Notes under the pieces: generated by a model
What the model was told of the DNA's origin: nothing
Database searches by the model: none
Seen by the model: the letters and a program-made list of their open reading frames with translations, nothing else
Shown: positions 260 through 9,132 of the stretch, piece by piece
Position numbering within the stretch: the stretch's first letter is position 1
How the letters are laid out: each line of letters starts with the position of its first letter
Translations under genes and position numbers: made by a program
Virus record (IMG/VR): IMGVR_UViG_3300007734_000759
Span: 1-23,153 of that record
Reading direction: 5' to 3' (one strand)
DNA length: 23,153 nt
From: a virus

Positions 260-292
260 TATCTTAACAAACCTTAAAATCTTGGAGAGGAG

Positions 293-323
293 TTGCATAC
301 TTGAATTCCTCTCCCTATCTTTA
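293..323 (+). promoter_or_regulatory. Bacteroidetes sigma-type promoter, cassette 1, overlapped by a hairpin
   Basis: TTG 293-295, 20-nt spacer, TATCTTTA 316-323. Resembles the Bacteroidetes -33 TTTG / -7 TAnnTTTG consensus. Inverted repeat GGAGAGGAGTT/AATTCCTCTCC. Confidence 0.75.
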
Positions 324-343
324 GGTATCAAACAAAAACAGTT

Positions 344-505
344 ATGAAAACATTTATTATTGACCTCTACACAGGAAAAGTGGATGTCCTTCCTAAAGGA
401 GAGTTTAAAGATGCTATTGATGGACTTGAGGAAGTAGTGAGTGAAGGTGGTATTACATCCTATAGAGGAGAAGAGTACATTGTTGTAGTTCTTAAAAAAC
501 CTTAA
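344..505 (+). CDS. Small hypothetical protein, 53 aa (MKTFIIDLYTGKVDV...VVVLKKP)
   Basis: Hand-translated; below the ORF-track cutoff. The ATG is the conserved GTTATG of element 1 and the stop lies in the second CTTAA of element 2. Confidence 0.8.
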   Translation: MKTFIIDLYTGKVDVLPKGEFKDAIDGLEEVVSEGGITSYRGEEYIVVVLKKP

Positions 506-511
506 CAAAGG

Positions 512-541
512 TTGCATATCGAATCAATAGGAGTATCTTTA
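512..541 (+). promoter_or_regulatory. Bacteroidetes-type promoter, cassette 2
   Basis: TTG 512-514, 19-nt spacer, TATCTTTA 534-541. Confidence 0.75.
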
Positions 542-569
542 GGTATCAAACAAATAAACAAAAACAGTT

Positions 570-665
570 ATGGTAGTAGTAATCTTTATGCTGTTCCTGA
601 TCTTGATGGGTCTAGGAAACATGAACAAGAAAATGAACAGGTACAATCGAACAAAACTAAAGTAA
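570..665 (+). CDS. Small membrane peptide, 31 aa (MVVVIFMLFLILMGLGNMNKKMNRYNRTKLK)
   Basis: Starts at the GTTATG of element 2. Hydrophobic N-terminus with basic tail; TAATG stop/start overlap with the next gene. Confidence 0.7.
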   Translation: MVVVIFMLFLILMGLGNMNKKMNRYNRTKLK

Positions 666-865
666 TGAAGAAAATCAGATTAGTAGGTCGCTTAGCGGCA
701 TCAGCTCTTATAGCAATCTTTCTTGAAGGTTTGATGACATTGGGTCATGCATACAACTTCTCAGAGTACGGACCAATGGGATGGATCGTGCAAGGTTTGA
801 TCTTGGTATTGGTAGCTTGGATTGGTGCTGAGTGGCATGACCACGAAGAGAAGTTGAATTCTTAA
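665..865 (+). CDS. Two-TM small membrane protein, 66 aa
   Basis: Likely true start of ORF 512..865 (MKKIRLVGRL...), translationally coupled via TAATG. Two hydrophobic segments; stop supplied by element 3. Confidence 0.8.
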   Translation: MKKIRLVGRLAASALIAIFLEGLMTLGHAYNFSEYGPMGWIVQGLILVLVAWIGAEWHDHEEKLNS

Positions 866-876
866 AAAACCTTAAC

Positions 877-911
877 GGAGTGGGATCATAAGATCCCATT
901 CCCTATCTTTA
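877..911 (+). promoter_or_regulatory. Hairpin-type cassette element 3 with -7 box
   Basis: GGAGTGGGATC-ATAA-GATCCCATTCC (877-902), then TATCTTTA at 904-911. Confidence 0.7.
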
Positions 912-931
912 AGTATCAAAAGCAAACAGTT

Positions 932-1480
932 ATGAAAAAAGCATTCGCATTAGCAGCATTGGTCCTATCCTTAGCAAGCTGCACAAAGTCAAAGTGGGAC
1001 GACAACCAACCTGTATGGGTTTATGAGTTTTGGTACAAGAAGTACATGATCTTGAATAACGGAGATACTGTACAAGGTATCAAAGTGAAACCGGATCAGT
1101 TTGGTAATCCAATCAAAGAGCTAATCAACTACAGCGGTCAAAGACCTTCAGCTCAAGGATGGACACCTATCGAATTGAATGCTGAGCAATTGGAAAACGT
1201 TCGTTGGAATTTAGGTAAGGATGATGGAGGAGCAAGGACGTTACAAGTTTGGAAGACAAGGTATGCAGGGAAGACTTTGAAAGAGATGATGAACTTCGGA
1301 GATCCAAACCATGATGGGTATGTTATAGATCCTGCATATGAGAATATGACTGTGGAGGATCTTAAAGCAATTGTTGAAGTATATGAACCTGGAATCTTGA
1401 TTGAGCATACTACGTACAAGTTAAGTCAAAGAGGAGAGACTACAAGGATCAGAGAAGAGATGTATTCCAAGAAAAACTAA
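932..1480 (+). CDS. Lipoprotein (paralog of 1795..2274)
   Basis: Type II signal peptide with lipobox: MKKAFALAALVLSLAS-C. Shares ILNNGDTV and YxNxTxxDxKxIV with 1795..2274. Confidence 0.85.
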   Translation: MKKAFALAALVLSLASCTKSKWDDNQPVWVYEFWYKKYMILNNGDTVQGIKVKPDQFGNPIKELINYSGQRPSAQGWTPIELNAEQLENVRWNLGKDDGGARTLQVWKTRYAGKTLKEMMNFGDPNHDGYVIDPAYENMTVEDLKAIVEVYEPGILIEHTTYKLSQRGETTRIREEMYSKKN

Positions 1481-1504
1481 TATCTTAAAAAACCTTAACA
1501 GGAG

Positions 1505-1534
1505 TTGCATCCTAAGCAATTGGTTGTATCTTTA
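1505..1534 (+). promoter_or_regulatory. Bacteroidetes-type promoter, cassette 4
   Basis: TTG 1505-1507, 19-nt spacer, TATCTTTA 1527-1534. Confidence 0.7.
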
Positions 1535-1557
1535 ATTCAAGAAAGGAGAACAAAGCA

Positions 1558-1728
1558 ATGGAACAAATTGGTCTTTATGTAATATCAGGATTGCTTGTAG
1601 CAAGCATGCTTGAATACCTTAATGGTCAAACAGGAAGTGATATCAAACTTAACTTGTTCGACAGATTATTGTTCGTTGTACTATGGCCTTTGTTTGGAGG
1701 TATGTTAGTAAAATCTCTAATATCTTAA
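1558..1728 (+). CDS. Small two-TM membrane protein, 56 aa (MEQIGLYVISGLLVASML...LWPLFGGMLVKSLIS)
   Basis: Hand-translated. Follows element 4; stop supplied by element 5. Confidence 0.75.
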   Translation: MEQIGLYVISGLLVASMLEYLNGQTGSDIKLNLFDRLLFVVLWPLFGGMLVKSLIS

Positions 1729-1744
1729 AAAACCTTAACACCGG

Positions 1745-1774
1745 TTGCAGATCCAACCATCAGTCGTATCTTTA
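1745..1774 (+). promoter_or_regulatory. Bacteroidetes-type promoter, cassette 5
   Basis: TTG 1745-1747, 19-nt spacer, TATCTTTA 1767-1774. Confidence 0.75.
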
Positions 1775-1794
1775 GTTATCAAACAAACACAGTT

Positions 1795-2274
1795 ATGAAA
1801 AAAGCAATCTTAATCATCGCAGCAGTAATCACATTGGCATCTTGCTCAAAGCCAGAGCCATGTTGGGTTCAATTCACCCACTACAACGAATACGTGATCT
1901 TGAATAACGGTGACACTGTCACCTACGAAGATGGATTCGTAATGAGTGGAATGGCTACTGGAGCAACAAAGAGACAACTAACTCCACAAGAGCAAGAGCA
2001 ACTACAAAACCATCTCGACACAATGTGTCGTACAACGGTGAAGGGTTTCGAACCATTCCGTGACAAGGGAGAGAAGTGGAGAGAGATGGATTCCATTACT
2101 GGAAAGAAGCATACGTTGGATTACTGGATGAAGTTTCAAAACCATACCATCAAGGAGGAGTACAAGAACCTTACAGCGGACGACGTTAAGATGATTGTAT
2201 GTGATTACTACTACACCTACCAAATGTTCATGGATGATGGAGAGAAGAGATTGTACTACGACATCTTCGAATAA
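1795..2274 (+). CDS. Lipoprotein (paralog of 932..1480)
   Basis: Lipobox MKKAILIIAAVITLAS-C; shared ILNNGDTV motif. Confidence 0.85.
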   Translation: MKKAILIIAAVITLASCSKPEPCWVQFTHYNEYVILNNGDTVTYEDGFVMSGMATGATKRQLTPQEQEQLQNHLDTMCRTTVKGFEPFRDKGEKWREMDSITGKKHTLDYWMKFQNHTIKEEYKNLTADDVKMIVCDYYYTYQMFMDDGEKRLYYDIFE

Positions 2275-2300
2275 AAAGCAATATCTTAAAAAACCTTAAC

Positions 2301-2335
2301 GGAGTGGGATCTTCGAATCCCATTCCCTATCTTTA
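2301..2335 (+). promoter_or_regulatory. Hairpin-type cassette element 6 with -7 box
   Basis: GGAGTGGGAT-CTTCGA-ATCCCATTCC (2301-2326), then TATCTTTA. Confidence 0.7.
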
Positions 2336-2356
2336 GGTATCAAAAGCAAACAAGTT

Positions 2357-2503
2357 ATGGCAGCAGTTTACAAAGTAGAAGTAGTTTCACATTGGAAAAA
2401 CTACACTAAGGAAGAACTTGAAAAGATATTGAACGAAGCAATTAAAAAGCAAATTGAAACAGAATCAAATGAGATTACTATCGAAGTGCAAGAAAGAGTT
2501 TAA
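2357..2503 (+). CDS. Small hypothetical protein, 48 aa (MAAVYKVEVVSHWKNY...EVQERV)
   Basis: Hand-translated; starts at the GTTATG of element 6. Confidence 0.8.
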   Translation: MAAVYKVEVVSHWKNYTKEELEKILNEAIKKQIETESNEITIEVQERV

Positions 2504-2514
2504 ATAAAAAAGTT

Positions 2515-2721
2515 ATGACACAACAAACAGCAGTAGAGTGGTTGGAAAATGAATACAATACAAAGGGTAAATTGACTGCAGTTGACTTTTACCAAGCCAA
2601 AGCAATGGAGAAGGAGCAAATCAAATTAGCATTCAGTATAGGAATGAATAGTAGTGTAGATTACTTTGATGGAGTTACTGATGAGGATGAGAATTACTAC
2701 AACGAAACATTCAATAAGTAA
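2515..2721 (+). CDS. Small phage hypothetical protein (QTAVEWL-type N-terminus)
   Basis: ORF track; A-rich leader ending GTTATG. The MTQQTAVEWL...AKAMEKEQI pattern is one I recall from aquatic phage hypothetical proteins. Confidence 0.8.
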   Translation: MTQQTAVEWLENEYNTKGKLTAVDFYQAKAMEKEQIKLAFSIGMNSSVDYFDGVTDEDENYYNETFNK

Positions 2722-2747
2722 GAGTTCTTAAAAAACCTTAACAAAGG

Positions 2748-2777
2748 TTGCAGATCCAATCAATAGGAGTATCTTTA
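2748..2777 (+). promoter_or_regulatory. Bacteroidetes-type promoter, cassette 7
   Basis: TTG 2748-2750, 19-nt spacer, TATCTTTA 2770-2777. Confidence 0.75.
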
Positions 2778-2798
2778 GATATCAAAAGCAAACGAGTT

Positions 2799-2921
2799 AT
2801 GAATTATACTGAAAAGGAGATAAAGGTTATAGAGCAAAGAGCATATGACAAAGGTAGAATGGAAGGGGTTGTAGTAACCTTACTAATATGCCTACTGGGT
2901 TTAATCCTTGTGTTACTATAA
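2799..2921 (+). CDS. Small C-terminally anchored membrane protein, 40 aa
   Basis: Hand-translated MNYTEKEIKVIEQRAYDKGRMEGVVVTLLICLLGLILVLL; starts at the GTTATG of element 7. Confidence 0.75.
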   Translation: MNYTEKEIKVIEQRAYDKGRMEGVVVTLLICLLGLILVLL

Positions 2922-2927
2922 TAAAAT

Positions 2928-3040
2928 AGTCAGGTGGCGGAATTGGTTAGACGCTGCCCGTGGAGGGTTGATTGGTTCCGTTCGACTCGGACGTTGGAAA
3001 TGGTGTTCCACAAATACAGGTTCGAATCCTGTCCTGACTG
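2928..3040 (+). ncRNA. Non-canonical tRNA-like RNA (113 nt) with expanded centre and no canonical anticodon arm
   Basis: Perfect acceptor stem AGTCAGG/CCTGACT, Leu-type D arm GCG-GAATTGGTTAGA-CGC and T arm ACAGG-TTCGAAT-CCTGT. About 60 nt lie between the D and T arms. Confidence 0.75.
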
Positions 3041-3084
3041 CAAAATAAAGAATTTAGGTATTTCTTAAAAAACCTTAACAGAGC

Positions 3085-3114
3085 TTGTCATTCAAATCAA
3101 TAGGAGTATCTTTA
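3085..3114 (+). promoter_or_regulatory. Bacteroidetes-type promoter, cassette 8
   Basis: TTG 3085-3087, 19-nt spacer, TATCTTTA 3107-3114. Confidence 0.75.
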
Positions 3115-3135
3115 GTTATCAAAAGAAACAAAGCT

Positions 3136-3315
3136 ATGACAAAGAATCAAAAAAGCAGATTAGTTGAGGTGATCAACTTAAACATCGAAGAAGCAAATCG
3201 TCTATTCAAAACAAAAGAACAGTCTGATGCTTACATCATCGGCTTCCTGCAAGGAGTATTGAGAGTAGTAAGAGATGAACTTGAAGAAGGTATAGAAGAA
3301 AAAGTAATATCTTAA
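3136..3315 (+). CDS. Small hypothetical protein, 59 aa (MTKNQKSRLVEV...)
   Basis: Start moved from 3085 to the ATG after element 8; stop supplied by element 9. Confidence 0.8.
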   Translation: MTKNQKSRLVEVINLNIEEANRLFKTKEQSDAYIIGFLQGVLRVVRDELEEGIEEKVIS

Positions 3316-3331
3316 AAAACCTTAACGAGAG

Positions 3332-3361
3332 TTGATCATTAAACATTCAGTCGTATCTTTA
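3332..3361 (+). promoter_or_regulatory. Bacteroidetes-type promoter, cassette 9
   Basis: TTG 3332-3334, 19-nt spacer, TATCTTTA 3354-3361. Confidence 0.75.
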
Positions 3362-3382
3362 GATATCAAAAGCAAACAAGTT

Positions 3383-3541
3383 ATGAAAACAATCATGTCA
3401 CTAATCGTAGTCGTTCTTATCTCAAGTTGTATGTCAACGAACGGATGTATCGGAGGAGCTGATCATAATAAGAGAGTAGCTCAGAAGAGACATCACTATC
3501 GAGCTAAACATCGTTCATACACTCACTCATATTACAACTAA
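3383..3541 (+). CDS. Small lipoprotein with His/Arg/Tyr-rich tail, 52 aa
   Basis: Starts at the GTTATG of element 9; lipobox MKTIMSLIVVVLISS-C. Confidence 0.75.
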   Translation: MKTIMSLIVVVLISSCMSTNGCIGGADHNKRVAQKRHHYRAKHRSYTHSYYN

Positions 3542-3580
3542 TCTAATTTCTTAAAAAGTCTTAACAAAAGAAAAAAAAAG

Positions 3581-3610
3581 TTGAAGATCGAAAAGTAAGT
3601 AGTATCTTTA
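3581..3610 (+). promoter_or_regulatory. Bacteroidetes-type promoter, cassette 10 (degenerate element)
   Basis: CTTAAAAAGTCTTAAC at 3550; TTG 3581-3583, 19-nt spacer, TATCTTTA 3603-3610. Confidence 0.7.
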
Positions 3611-3660
3611 AGTATTGAAAAAATAAACAAACATTTAAACAAACATTAAACAAAAACGTT

Positions 3661-6638: not shown

Positions 6639-6645
6639 CAAGTTT

Positions 6646-6726
6646 AGGATAGGTTACGGTAACGTAGAAACATAATACTCGGGCAGGGTTAGTTTCTATT
6701 AAGGGTTCGATACCTTTTCTATCCTC
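6646..6726 (+). ncRNA. tRNA-like RNA with minimal D arm and 20-nt 'anticodon' loop
   Basis: Acceptor AGGATAG/CTATCCT; TACG-GTAA-CGTA; GAAAC-20 nt-GTTTC; T arm AAGGG-TTCGATA-CCTTT. Lies between two canonical tRNAs. Confidence 0.6.
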
Positions 6727-6733
6727 AAAAAAT

Positions 6734-6814: not shown

Positions 6815-6820
6815 CAGAGA

Positions 6821-6922
6821 GCCCTAAGGCCACGGGATCGTAGTTCCTCAACCTCTGTGATTAAGTTGAGTGGGATCGTAAGCCCGATAGGTTGGCAACT
6901 GACCTACTGACCCTTGATAGGC
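6821..6922 (+). ncRNA. Putative structured non-tRNA RNA in the tRNA cluster
   Basis: GC-rich. Closing stem GCC(C)TAAGG/CCTTG(ATA)GGC, inner stems CGGG/CCCG and CTCAAC/GTTGAG, and TAGGTT-GGCAACT-GACCTA. Confidence 0.5.
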
Positions 6923-6935
6923 AATAGTTGCAAAC

Positions 6936-7611: not shown

Positions 7612-9132
7612 ATGCTTATGAAAAAATTAATTACGTTACTAACCTTGTTACTAACTTTTGGAGCAACCGCTCAGTTCCTAGACTCAACAAACTACAAAGG
7701 AGCTTTCCCCGCAGATCAATCAATGTGGACAAATGGATGGTGTAATTGGAATCCCGATTCAACCAACTACCCAGCAATTAATATAACCGTCTCAGGAAAC
7801 ATCACTTCAAACACTACTTGGACGTCAAACAACACTTACCTTCTATCCGGTACTGTTTACGTTGACTCAGGTGTTACTTTAGTTATACAACCCGGAACTA
7901 TCATTAGAGGTAATGATTTAATTGCTAATTCAAGTTTAATTATTAAAAAAGGTGGTAGACTTATTGCTCAGGGTACTTCAACTAATCCAATTGTATTTAC
8001 TTCCAATAAACCTATCGGATCTCGAGGTGTTGGAGATTGGGGTGGAGTTATCTTGTTAGGCAGAGCTACAATGAACCAAGGTGTAGGATTTATTGAGGGA
8101 TTAGCAGCTATCGCAGATCATCAATATGGTGGTTCAGATGATAATGATAATTCAGGTATCCTATCTTATGTTCGTATTGAATATGGTGGTTATGTATTTG
8201 CCCAAAATAAAGAGATTAATGGATTAACTATGGGTGCTGTAGGAAGAGGTACTCAAATTGATCATATCCAATGTTCTTTTATTAACGATGATGCTTTTGA
8301 GTGGTACGGCGGAGCAGTAAATTGTAAATACTTAGTTTCTTATAGAACCGTAGATGATGACTTTGATTCTGATTTCGGTTATCACGGATTTGTACAGTAT
8401 GGTTTGTCAGTTAGAGATCCACAATTAGGGGATCCTTCTTACTCACTTCCTTCCGGTGCTTCTACTTCTGAAGGATTCGAATCAGACAACGATGCTGCGG
8501 GTTCAAATTTACAACCATTTACAAATGCTACATTTGCTAATTTTACAATGATTGGCCCTTTTAGAGGAAACAATACTTCAACAGTACATCCAGCATATAG
8601 AAGAGGAGCTCGTATTCGTCGTAACTCTCAAATTAAAATTATCAATACTATCTTTACAGATTGGGCAACTGGTGTGATGATTGATGGAGTTGCTTGTGAT
8701 TCTAATGCAATTCGAGGCACTTTAATTGTACGTGATAATCTAATCACCAATTACAGGACCCGAGTAGCAGAGAGAAGTTCCGCTAGCACGTTTAATGTGT
8801 TGCAGTTTATTGGATCAAATAACGATACTCTACCAACTAGTAATATCCTAACTCGTCCTTACGACTTTAATAATCCAGACTATCGTCTCAAATCATCAGT
8901 AAATAGTGAAGATCTTACCTCAATGTTACAAGCGTATCCTAACCCTTGTTCCGATGTGTTATTTGTTATAGCAACTAAAAACGATGTTTTAATGATAACC
9001 GATCTATCAAATAAGTTGATTTTAACGCAAAAGGTTACACAGGGGACGAATATAGTAAATGTTAACTTTTCTAATGGAATTTATTTAGTGAAAGTTGGAA
9101 ATCATACTAAAAAGGTAATTATTAGTAGATAA
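7612..9132 (+). CDS. Secreted beta-helix-type protein with T9SS type A C-terminal sorting domain
   Basis: Signal peptide (start 7612 or 7618). Core motifs GDWGGVILLG, DNSGILSYVRIEYGG, EINGLT, DDAFEWYGG, DDDFDSD. CTD pattern YPNP...GIYLVKV...KKVII. Confidence 0.85.
   Translation: MLMKKLITLLTLLLTFGATAQFLDSTNYKGAFPADQSMWTNGWCNWNPDSTNYPAINITVSGNITSNTTWTSNNTYLLSGTVYVDSGVTLVIQPGTIIRGNDLIANSSLIIKKGGRLIAQGTSTNPIVFTSNKPIGSRGVGDWGGVILLGRATMNQGVGFIEGLAAIADHQYGGSDDNDNSGILSYVRIEYGGYVFAQNKEINGLTMGAVGRGTQIDHIQCSFINDDAFEWYGGAVNCKYLVSYRTVDDDFDSDFGYHGFVQYGLSVRDPQLGDPSYSLPSGASTSEGFESDNDAAGSNLQPFTNATFANFTMIGPFRGNNTSTVHPAYRRGARIRRNSQIKIINTIFTDWATGVMIDGVACDSNAIRGTLIVRDNLITNYRTRVAERSSASTFNVLQFIGSNNDTLPTSNILTRPYDFNNPDYRLKSSVNSEDLTSMLQAYPNPCSDVLFVIATKNDVLMITDLSNKLILTQKVTQGTNIVNVNFSNGIYLVKVGNHTKKVIISR

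Follow-up and report, generated by a model that had tools for sequence, protein, structure and literature searches.

The locus and its genomic setting

The window analysed here is a stretch of 23,153 nucleotides that forms the start of a 159,435-bp viral record (IMGVR_UViG_3300007734_000759, here G000) with a 127-nt terminal repeat. Its genes include those for T4-like capsid, portal, and sheath proteins, for a family A DNA polymerase, and for a RecA-like protein. A reverse transcriptase, integrase, RtcB, CCA enzyme, Ro60, or tRNA synthetase was not found by Pfam among its 166 ORFs of at least 100 aa. An array of promoter-like repeats occupies window positions 272 to 3631 and G000 positions ~128,000 to 159,000, each copy followed by a single small ORF or a few of them. 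The core 8-mer of the repeat occurs 45 times on the plus strand and 12 times on the minus strand of the genome, and the repeat probably resembles the -7 promoter motif of Bacteroidota.

The tRNA-shaped element at 2928 to 3040 lies inside this array and away from the tRNA cluster, as an earlier note on this DNA had described; the distance to the cluster is about 3.5 kb. We call its tRNA-like frame the shell and the insert within that frame the cargo. The features are as follows.

2726 to 2798, plus strand: promoter-like repeat copy (repeat family D1, nine copies)
2799 to 2921, plus strand: hypothetical ORF of 40 aa, with its stop 6 nt upstream of the RNA
2928 to 2954, plus strand: shell 5' box, with the acceptor 5' strand, U8-G9, and a Leu-type D arm (A14 A15, GG)
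2955 to 3015, plus strand: structured cargo of 61 nt, replacing the anticodon and variable arms
2956 to 2968, plus strand: cargo hairpin 1, 4 bp including a G-U pair, 5-nt loop
2977 to 2991, plus strand: cargo hairpin 2, a second T-loop (T-loop-like), with a G-C closing pair and a TTCGAYT loop
2995 to 3010, plus strand: cargo hairpin 3, 5 bp, at the position of the variable arm
3016 to 3040, plus strand: shell 3' box, with the T arm, acceptor 3' strand, and discriminator
3063 to 3135, plus strand: next promoter-like repeat

The repeat at 2726 to 2798 likely drives both the 40-aa ORF, which has no Pfam family, and the tRNA-shaped RNA. Because the next repeat follows at 3063 to 3135, the RNA is the final item of its own cassette.

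A tRNA frame without an anticodon arm

The acceptor strands (2928 to 2934 and 3033 to 3039) pair at all seven positions. The D stem is formed by 2937 to 2939 and 2952 to 2954, and the T arm spans 3016 to 3032. A T stands at -1 (position 2927). The discriminator (N73) is G3040, the next base is C, and a full CCA is not encoded. The element has the 7-bp acceptor, the D arm, and the 5-bp T arm with conserved elbow bases of a decoding tRNA; a 5-bp anticodon stem with a 7-nt loop, U33, and a purine at 37 was not found right after the D arm. Promoter- or terminator-like sites were not found within 2928 to 3040.

Rfam assigned 2928 to 3040 to the tRNA family with 36 bits (gathering threshold, 29), aligning the acceptor, D, and T arms and skipping 57 nt in the middle as an insert. 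The perfect pairing of the outer frame that the earlier note had reported was borne out. No Rfam family other than RF00005 was found at the element, which removed Y RNA (YrlA) and tRNA-Sec as candidates. We also rejected tmRNA, since there was no tmRNA call and pair 3-70 is U-A, not G3-U70. ARAGORN in its default mode, a check proposed along with Rfam, made no call and thus saw no standard tRNA with a normal anticodon arm; when introns were allowed, it called a Ser(cga) tRNA with a 20-nt intron.

The single sequence of 2928 to 3040 folds only modestly better than its shuffles (z = -1.44). The minimum-energy fold (-37.8 kcal/mol) pairs a D-arm strand with the insert, whereas a model with three separate cargo hairpins has -32.5 kcal/mol.

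Covariation in the cargo

We found 12 further copies of the 2955 to 3015 insert, 11 of them full-length; the cargo alignment consists of the window and these 11, and the copy cut at a contig end was left out. Over these 12 sequences, the pairing of the three-hairpin model reaches 99.1%. Eight pairs changed on both sides, four of them within the insert, and none of 500 shuffles matched this. Both-sided changes occurred in two of the four pairs of hairpin 1 (which has one broken cell), in one of the four pairs of hairpin 2, and in one of the five pairs of hairpin 3, there in one sequence only. The reading of the middle as a multi-hairpin insert with a second T-loop therefore held for all three hairpins, with one correction: the hairpin given as CCC-GTGGA-GGG is present and is one base pair longer, with 4 bp including the G-U pair. 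The suggested alternative pairing of GTGGA with TCCAC failed, its central pair being broken in 6 of the 12 copies. The minimum-energy fold that joins D arm and cargo was also rejected, because its own helices have no both-sided change in the 12 copies; it could still exist as a minor form.

The same signal appeared in 22 other cargo families, in which there were 11 both-sided compensatory changes versus 1.5 for random placement (maximum of 5 in 200). Judged by these alignments, the cargo structure is kept by selection, and the covariation in the 12 copies and the 22 families agrees with the earlier argument that the element is not a simply decaying tRNA. Loops are conserved as well. In this cargo, 5 of 35 unpaired and 9 of 26 paired positions vary (p ~0.07, a comparison partly biased by the search pattern), and in the 22 other families, unpaired sites are 8.5% variable versus 7.6% for paired sites.

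Cargos in general are structured and vary widely in length. T-loop hairpins occur in 9 of 221 cargo clusters versus 0.03 in shuffles, and GNRA hairpins number 50 versus 27. Folding relative to shuffles is moderately better only, with a mean z of -0.64 (n = 202).

A large family of near-invariant shells derived from tRNA-Leu

The exact 23-nt 3' box was found at 135 loci in 6 of the 64 parts of IMG/VR, which gives an estimate of ~1,400 stretches. A single control, the corresponding 23-mer from the ordinary tRNA-Leu of this phage, gave 4. Nearly all 3'-box matches share the acceptor 5' strand, and their middles differ. A search with the 5' 26-mer alone gave 72 distinct elements, 68 of which carry a T arm and a 3' strand able to pair; 36 of the 68 end in the exact consensus 3' box, and three of the four misses are cut at the locus end. 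The pooled loci comprise 309 distinct elements with a median middle of 57 nt, a few long middles being due to mis-set 5' ends. They fall into 222 cargo clusters, of which 174 are singletons. Some family members have almost no insert.

Among the 309 elements, T is at -1 in 253, T48 in 262, and A73 in 269, and a full CCA is rare (10). The D arm is of the Leu type in 214, with A14A15 in 209 of those, and a canonical anticodon arm is present in just 8 of 230 family members. In the 12 aligned copies of the present cargo, A73 is found in nine and G73 in one, that of the window. A shell-like D arm and T arm are nearly whole in a host-type tRNA-Leu(CAA) from a Chitinophagia bin (L288). This gene has near-identical D and T arms and likewise ends in N73-C, but several acceptor pairs differ, and the element studied here lacks the anticodon arm and has G73. 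By sequence comparison, the shell frame is a tRNA-Leu-derived, near-invariant phage element.

Shells are numerous within genomes. Of 34 chosen records, 33 hold between 1 and 14 matches each, and in four mapped arrays the shells are co-oriented, with tRNA genes, small ORFs, and further folded spacers around them. An ORF starts within 60 nt downstream of 80 of 232 shells, versus 13 on the opposite strand. Rfam returned nothing beyond tRNA and one tmRNA on 20 shell loci. In annotated phage records, no match covers 80% of a 161-nt query, and the best 40 of 1,940 records matched by a 30-nt 3' box include no exact full-length match. We rejected a depth peak over the element as a sign of expression, since it sums the shells of other phages and comes from contigs only. 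At L136 (~270 to 405) there is a second shell type with another acceptor and T stem; its middle resembles that of L102, which has the main shell type.

Of 20 shell-bearing loci in genome_contigs, all of them MAG contigs, 11 come from Bacteroidota bins. From this and the likeness of the repeat to the promoter motif, we infer a Bacteroidota host for the phage. A 506-aa protein at window positions 7612 to 9132 (plus strand) carries the C-terminal sorting domain of Bacteroidota type IX secretion (PF18962), something phages do not usually carry and an indication of the same host.

Cargos change in place and recur at unrelated sites

We compared the flanks of shells with like and unlike middles; contigs and pairs in these comparisons are not independent, and some contigs are near-duplicates. 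Where both flanks are homologous, 17 pairs have different middles versus 5 with the same middle. Conversely, 132 pairs have the same middle and neither flank homologous. Among 37 pairs with identical cargos, the flanks are related on neither side in 24, on both sides in 7, and on one side in 6. Identical cargos also sit in shells with different variants.

Two sites, both picked because they already showed differing cargos and both searched by the upstream flank only, were followed across contigs. At site 1, a shell starts at the identical base in 19 of 19 contigs and holds 12 cargo families; the upstream flanks are about 90% identical, and the downstream flank is kept in 17 of the 19. At site 2, a shell is present in 10 of 10 contigs with about six cargo families by eye, the same terminator-like flank in 8, and extra modules ahead of the shell in 6. 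An empty site without a shell was not found in these 29 contigs. For the site of the present phage itself, no useful close relatives were found; the end of the DUF932 gene in G000 is unlike site 2.

The present cargo behaves in the same way. The window and the 11 full-length copies have no common adjoining flank, and the carriers include both the T4-like 159-kb phage and a contig that has a tape-measure gene and a Sak4-like gene in place of a T4-like set. The comparison of sequences thus shows different cargos at one site and the same cargo at many sites, also in unrelated phage types.

In L311, two shells stand in tandem at site 1, and the spacer between them recurs between shells elsewhere. 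This arrangement matches what an exchange intermediate should look like. Because the spacer that moved lies outside the mature RNA, DNA recombination is favored over copying of the mature RNA. Among the 34 chosen records, many of them fragments and 12 at least 90% complete, a reverse transcriptase was found in none and an integrase in two. With no reverse transcriptase and almost no integrase, short-homology recombination at the shell ends is the likely route. Overall, we have good confidence that the cargos are exchanged as cassettes by DNA recombination. Three cargos also occur free-standing, which suggests that cargos are captured from a pool of folded RNAs between tRNA genes.

Folded spacer modules recur between or before shells in L012, L027, L211, L311, and L340 to L347, often with the same terminal small hairpin, and they move between sites independently of the cargos.

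Relation to known RNAs and exchange systems

The closest known RNA is RNA2 of phage T5 (rna2, AY543070, positions 32959 to 33083), which, like the element, has a tRNA frame without an anticodon arm and an enlarged, structured interior. T5 RNA1 and RNA2 are annotated as "tRNA-like stable RNA with unknown functions." In RNA2, a 16-nt stretch of the T arm is identical to that of the element, an inner T-loop hairpin has the loop found in 9 of the 12 copies of this cargo, and the final bases are ACA; the D arm of RNA1 is of the Leu type. RNA2 differs in its acceptor and D arm, its insert is unrelated, T5 has single copies, and the T5 annotation makes no mention of insert exchange. Whole-length homology to RNA2 was rejected because identity is limited to the T arm and the inner T-loop, and T5 was not among the 35 matches of annotated phage records to the 161-nt query. 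The element probably works like a T5-type tRNA-like RNA and shares with it T-arm and T-loop motifs, but no homology beyond them.

The exchange resembles that of the PeSLs of T4-type phages. These are short conserved recombination sites at which modules are shuffled via circles and tandems with no dedicated recombinase, according to PMC2839356. The promoter array of the window is of a PeSL-like kind. The shells also show a conserved element at the junctions of exchanged modules and, in L311, a tandem intermediate; a promoter and terminator stem-loop was not found, the element being a tRNA frame. In that description, a PeSL consists of a single promoter-terminator box and exchanges the genes on its outside, whereas a shell is two boxes that swap an RNA domain inside. 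Shells also swap the spacers or genes that lie between them.

An engineered tRNA scaffold offers a structural parallel. In PMC3753655, the acceptor, D, and T arms are kept and foreign RNA replaces the anticodon arm, as here. That scaffold was built in the laboratory on human tRNA-Lys3, and a stem closes its insert, whereas the natural cargo is mobile and forms a multi-hairpin junction. Allo-tRNAs and irregular tRNA polycistrons are likewise odd, arrayed tRNAs, some untranslated and some linked to toxin-antitoxin loci, but PMC5389517 and PMC7609411 give them 8/4 or 9/3 frames and an anticodon; the element is 7/5 and has no anticodon.

Our literature search found no description of the shell family or of cargo exchange in place; the older T5 literature likely lies outside its scope. 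Three short shell motifs are absent from six supplementary files of PMC10690425, and the remaining three files may list the family among the 10,006 candidate RNAs of that paper.

A mobile RNA cargo in a probably processed tRNA frame

We consider it fairly probable that the element is a tRNA-Leu-derived frame with an exchangeable folded cargo, made by host processing into a stable, non-decoding, protein-binding RNA and swapped by recombination. Transcription would start at the upstream repeat. RNase P would cut the 5' end, and the host would trim the 3' end and add CCA, as for host tRNA genes that likewise end in N73-C. RNase P, 3' trimming, and the CCA enzyme recognize the acceptor/T half of a bacterial tRNA; the frame should therefore release and protect the cargo. 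The product, a processed stable RNA of ~116 nt, is predicted with good confidence. According to PMC3753655, E. coli processes and accumulates an engineered scaffold in which acceptor, D, and T arms enclose a foreign insert.

Charging would not be essential. The determinants for LeuRS are A73, U8-A14, G18-U55, G19-C56, and an oriented variable arm, with the anticodon arm dispensable and A73 required, according to PMC2377443. The core bases are present in 2928 to 3040, but with G73 the element is without the A73 determinant of leucylation. Judged by these bases, most family members could be leucylated and this copy probably is not; hence charging should not be essential.

For the exchange, a crossover at one box would first bring in shell-bounded DNA and create a tandem; another crossover, at the second box, would then leave the new cargo in place. 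The two boxes would double as PeSL-like recombination sockets, with RecA/UvsX-like or Sak4-type recombinases rather than a dedicated enzyme carrying out the exchange.

What the cargos do is a matter of weaker claims. The conserved loops, rapid turnover, and location among accessory genes point to protein binding in an arms race. A cargo-specific protein-binding function stands at even chances in our judgment. An anti-defence role, in which the protein-binding cargo would most plausibly decoy host defence, is a tentative proposal. Of 202 neighboring ORFs collected, 150 were scanned and 19 had a Pfam match, with no control set. Two of the 150 are Acb2/Tad1-like anti-defence genes, one of which directly precedes a copy of this cargo, a link to anti-defence that is suggestive only. 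Acb2/Tad1-like genes directly follow a shell in L137 (2594 to 2908) and L211 (880 to 1140), and the L137 gene lies between two shells.

The earlier note had proposed a non-decoding tRNA mimic or a tRNA scaffold that is processed to release a small RNA. Its non-decoding part stands by covariation, by the family, and by the failed intron reading; a constant frame with exchanged cassettes was not visible to its reader. Its suggestion of a decoy for anticodon nucleases is now doubtful: what stays constant is the acceptor/D/T frame, and just 8 of 230 members have a canonical anticodon arm.

Other explanations

A serious rival, which we rate as rather unlikely, holds that the shell itself is the functional part, acting either as a signal for RNA processing or as a decoy that draws off enzymes attacking the acceptor end or elbow of tRNAs, and that the cargos are passengers, required merely to fold without upsetting the shell. 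It fits the presence of a shell in all 19 and all 10 contigs despite cargo turnover, the 80 of 232 shells that precede an ORF start within 60 nt (versus 13 on the opposite strand), the members with almost no insert, and the retention of processing determinants. However, loops and linkers vary about as little as stems do, and a single record can hold up to 14 shells with different cargos. Shells are also found at the ends of transcription units: in the window, as at site 2, the shell closes its unit, so there is no downstream gene there to punctuate. Insertion of the whole as a selfish, tRNA-derived mobile repeat (MITE- or SINE-like), with the terminal TA as a target duplication, would account for the inverted ends, the TA on both sides of most elements (T at -1 in 253 and A73 in 269 of 309), the many copies per genome, and the same element at unrelated sites. 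We consider this candidate improbable. No empty site was found in the 19 and 10 contigs of the two sites, the site stays while the cargo changes, identical cargos sit in variant shells, and none of the 34 records has a reverse transcriptase; the TA is explained by U-1 and A73 of a tRNA precursor.

The constant ends and variable middle resemble a repeat-spacer design, and phage RNA anti-CRISPRs exist, so that the cargo might be a guide or antisense sequence on a tRNA handle. This is very improbable, since cargos are structured and their length varies widely. When this cargo was compared with 401 genomes of the phylum presumed to contain the host, its best match was no better than chance (E = 0.0035 per genome). 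Of 288 cargos, 33 match outside masked shells, nearly all of these matches being other shell variants, and none is a gene by eye. We give hardly any weight to a spliced, decoding tRNA-Ser(CGA) with an intron, a reading that the earlier note had also thought the less likely. The Ser(cga) call with its 20-nt intron is in its favor, and G73 and a hairpin at the variable arm suit a serine tRNA. But the call requires the anticodon stem to have a mismatch and position 37 to be a pyrimidine, only one of the 12 copies has G73, the supposed intron contains a covarying hairpin, and the supposed anticodon loop fits the T-loop consensus. The canonical anticodon arm in only 8 of 230 members and the absence of RtcB or another splicing enzyme among the 166 G000 ORFs of at least 100 aa point the same way.

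Implications

Phage tRNA-like RNAs such as T5 RNA1/RNA2 and T4 rnaC/rnaD have gone decades without a function, and rnaC/rnaD are still "of unknown function" in PMC12685909. In the class described here, the chassis is constant and the payload varies, and fixed sites offer natural alleles in which the cargo has been swapped. Therefore, whether fitness follows the frame or the cargo is a directly testable question. If the cargos are effectors, they would be an overlooked reservoir of more than 200 RNA genes in phages, and the shell would be nature's counterpart of a standard trick for producing RNA. Shell genes are missed or miscalled by tRNA annotation. More speculatively, freshwater Bacteroidota phages might share a "tRNA-scaffold display library," in which a standard chassis that hijacks tRNA maturation and serves as a recombination socket presents hundreds of structured RNA effectors, such as decoys or aptamers that target host defence proteins, traded among unrelated phages. 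If so, the library would be an RNA counterpart of integron cassettes and anti-defence islands.

Other tRNA-like elements in the genome

A second noncanonical tRNA-shaped element lies at window positions 6645 to 6728 (plus strand), between tRNA-Glu and tRNA-Leu. Its acceptor stem differs, its anticodon region is enlarged, and it has a T arm; ARAGORN in its default mode gave no call there, and Rfam listed nothing at E values up to 1. Between tRNA-Leu and tRNA-Gln, at 6816 to 6935 (plus strand), there is a folded spacer with two predicted hairpins. A degenerate tRNA-like 3' half is located just upstream of tRNA-Met, at ~143,925 to 143,990 of G000.
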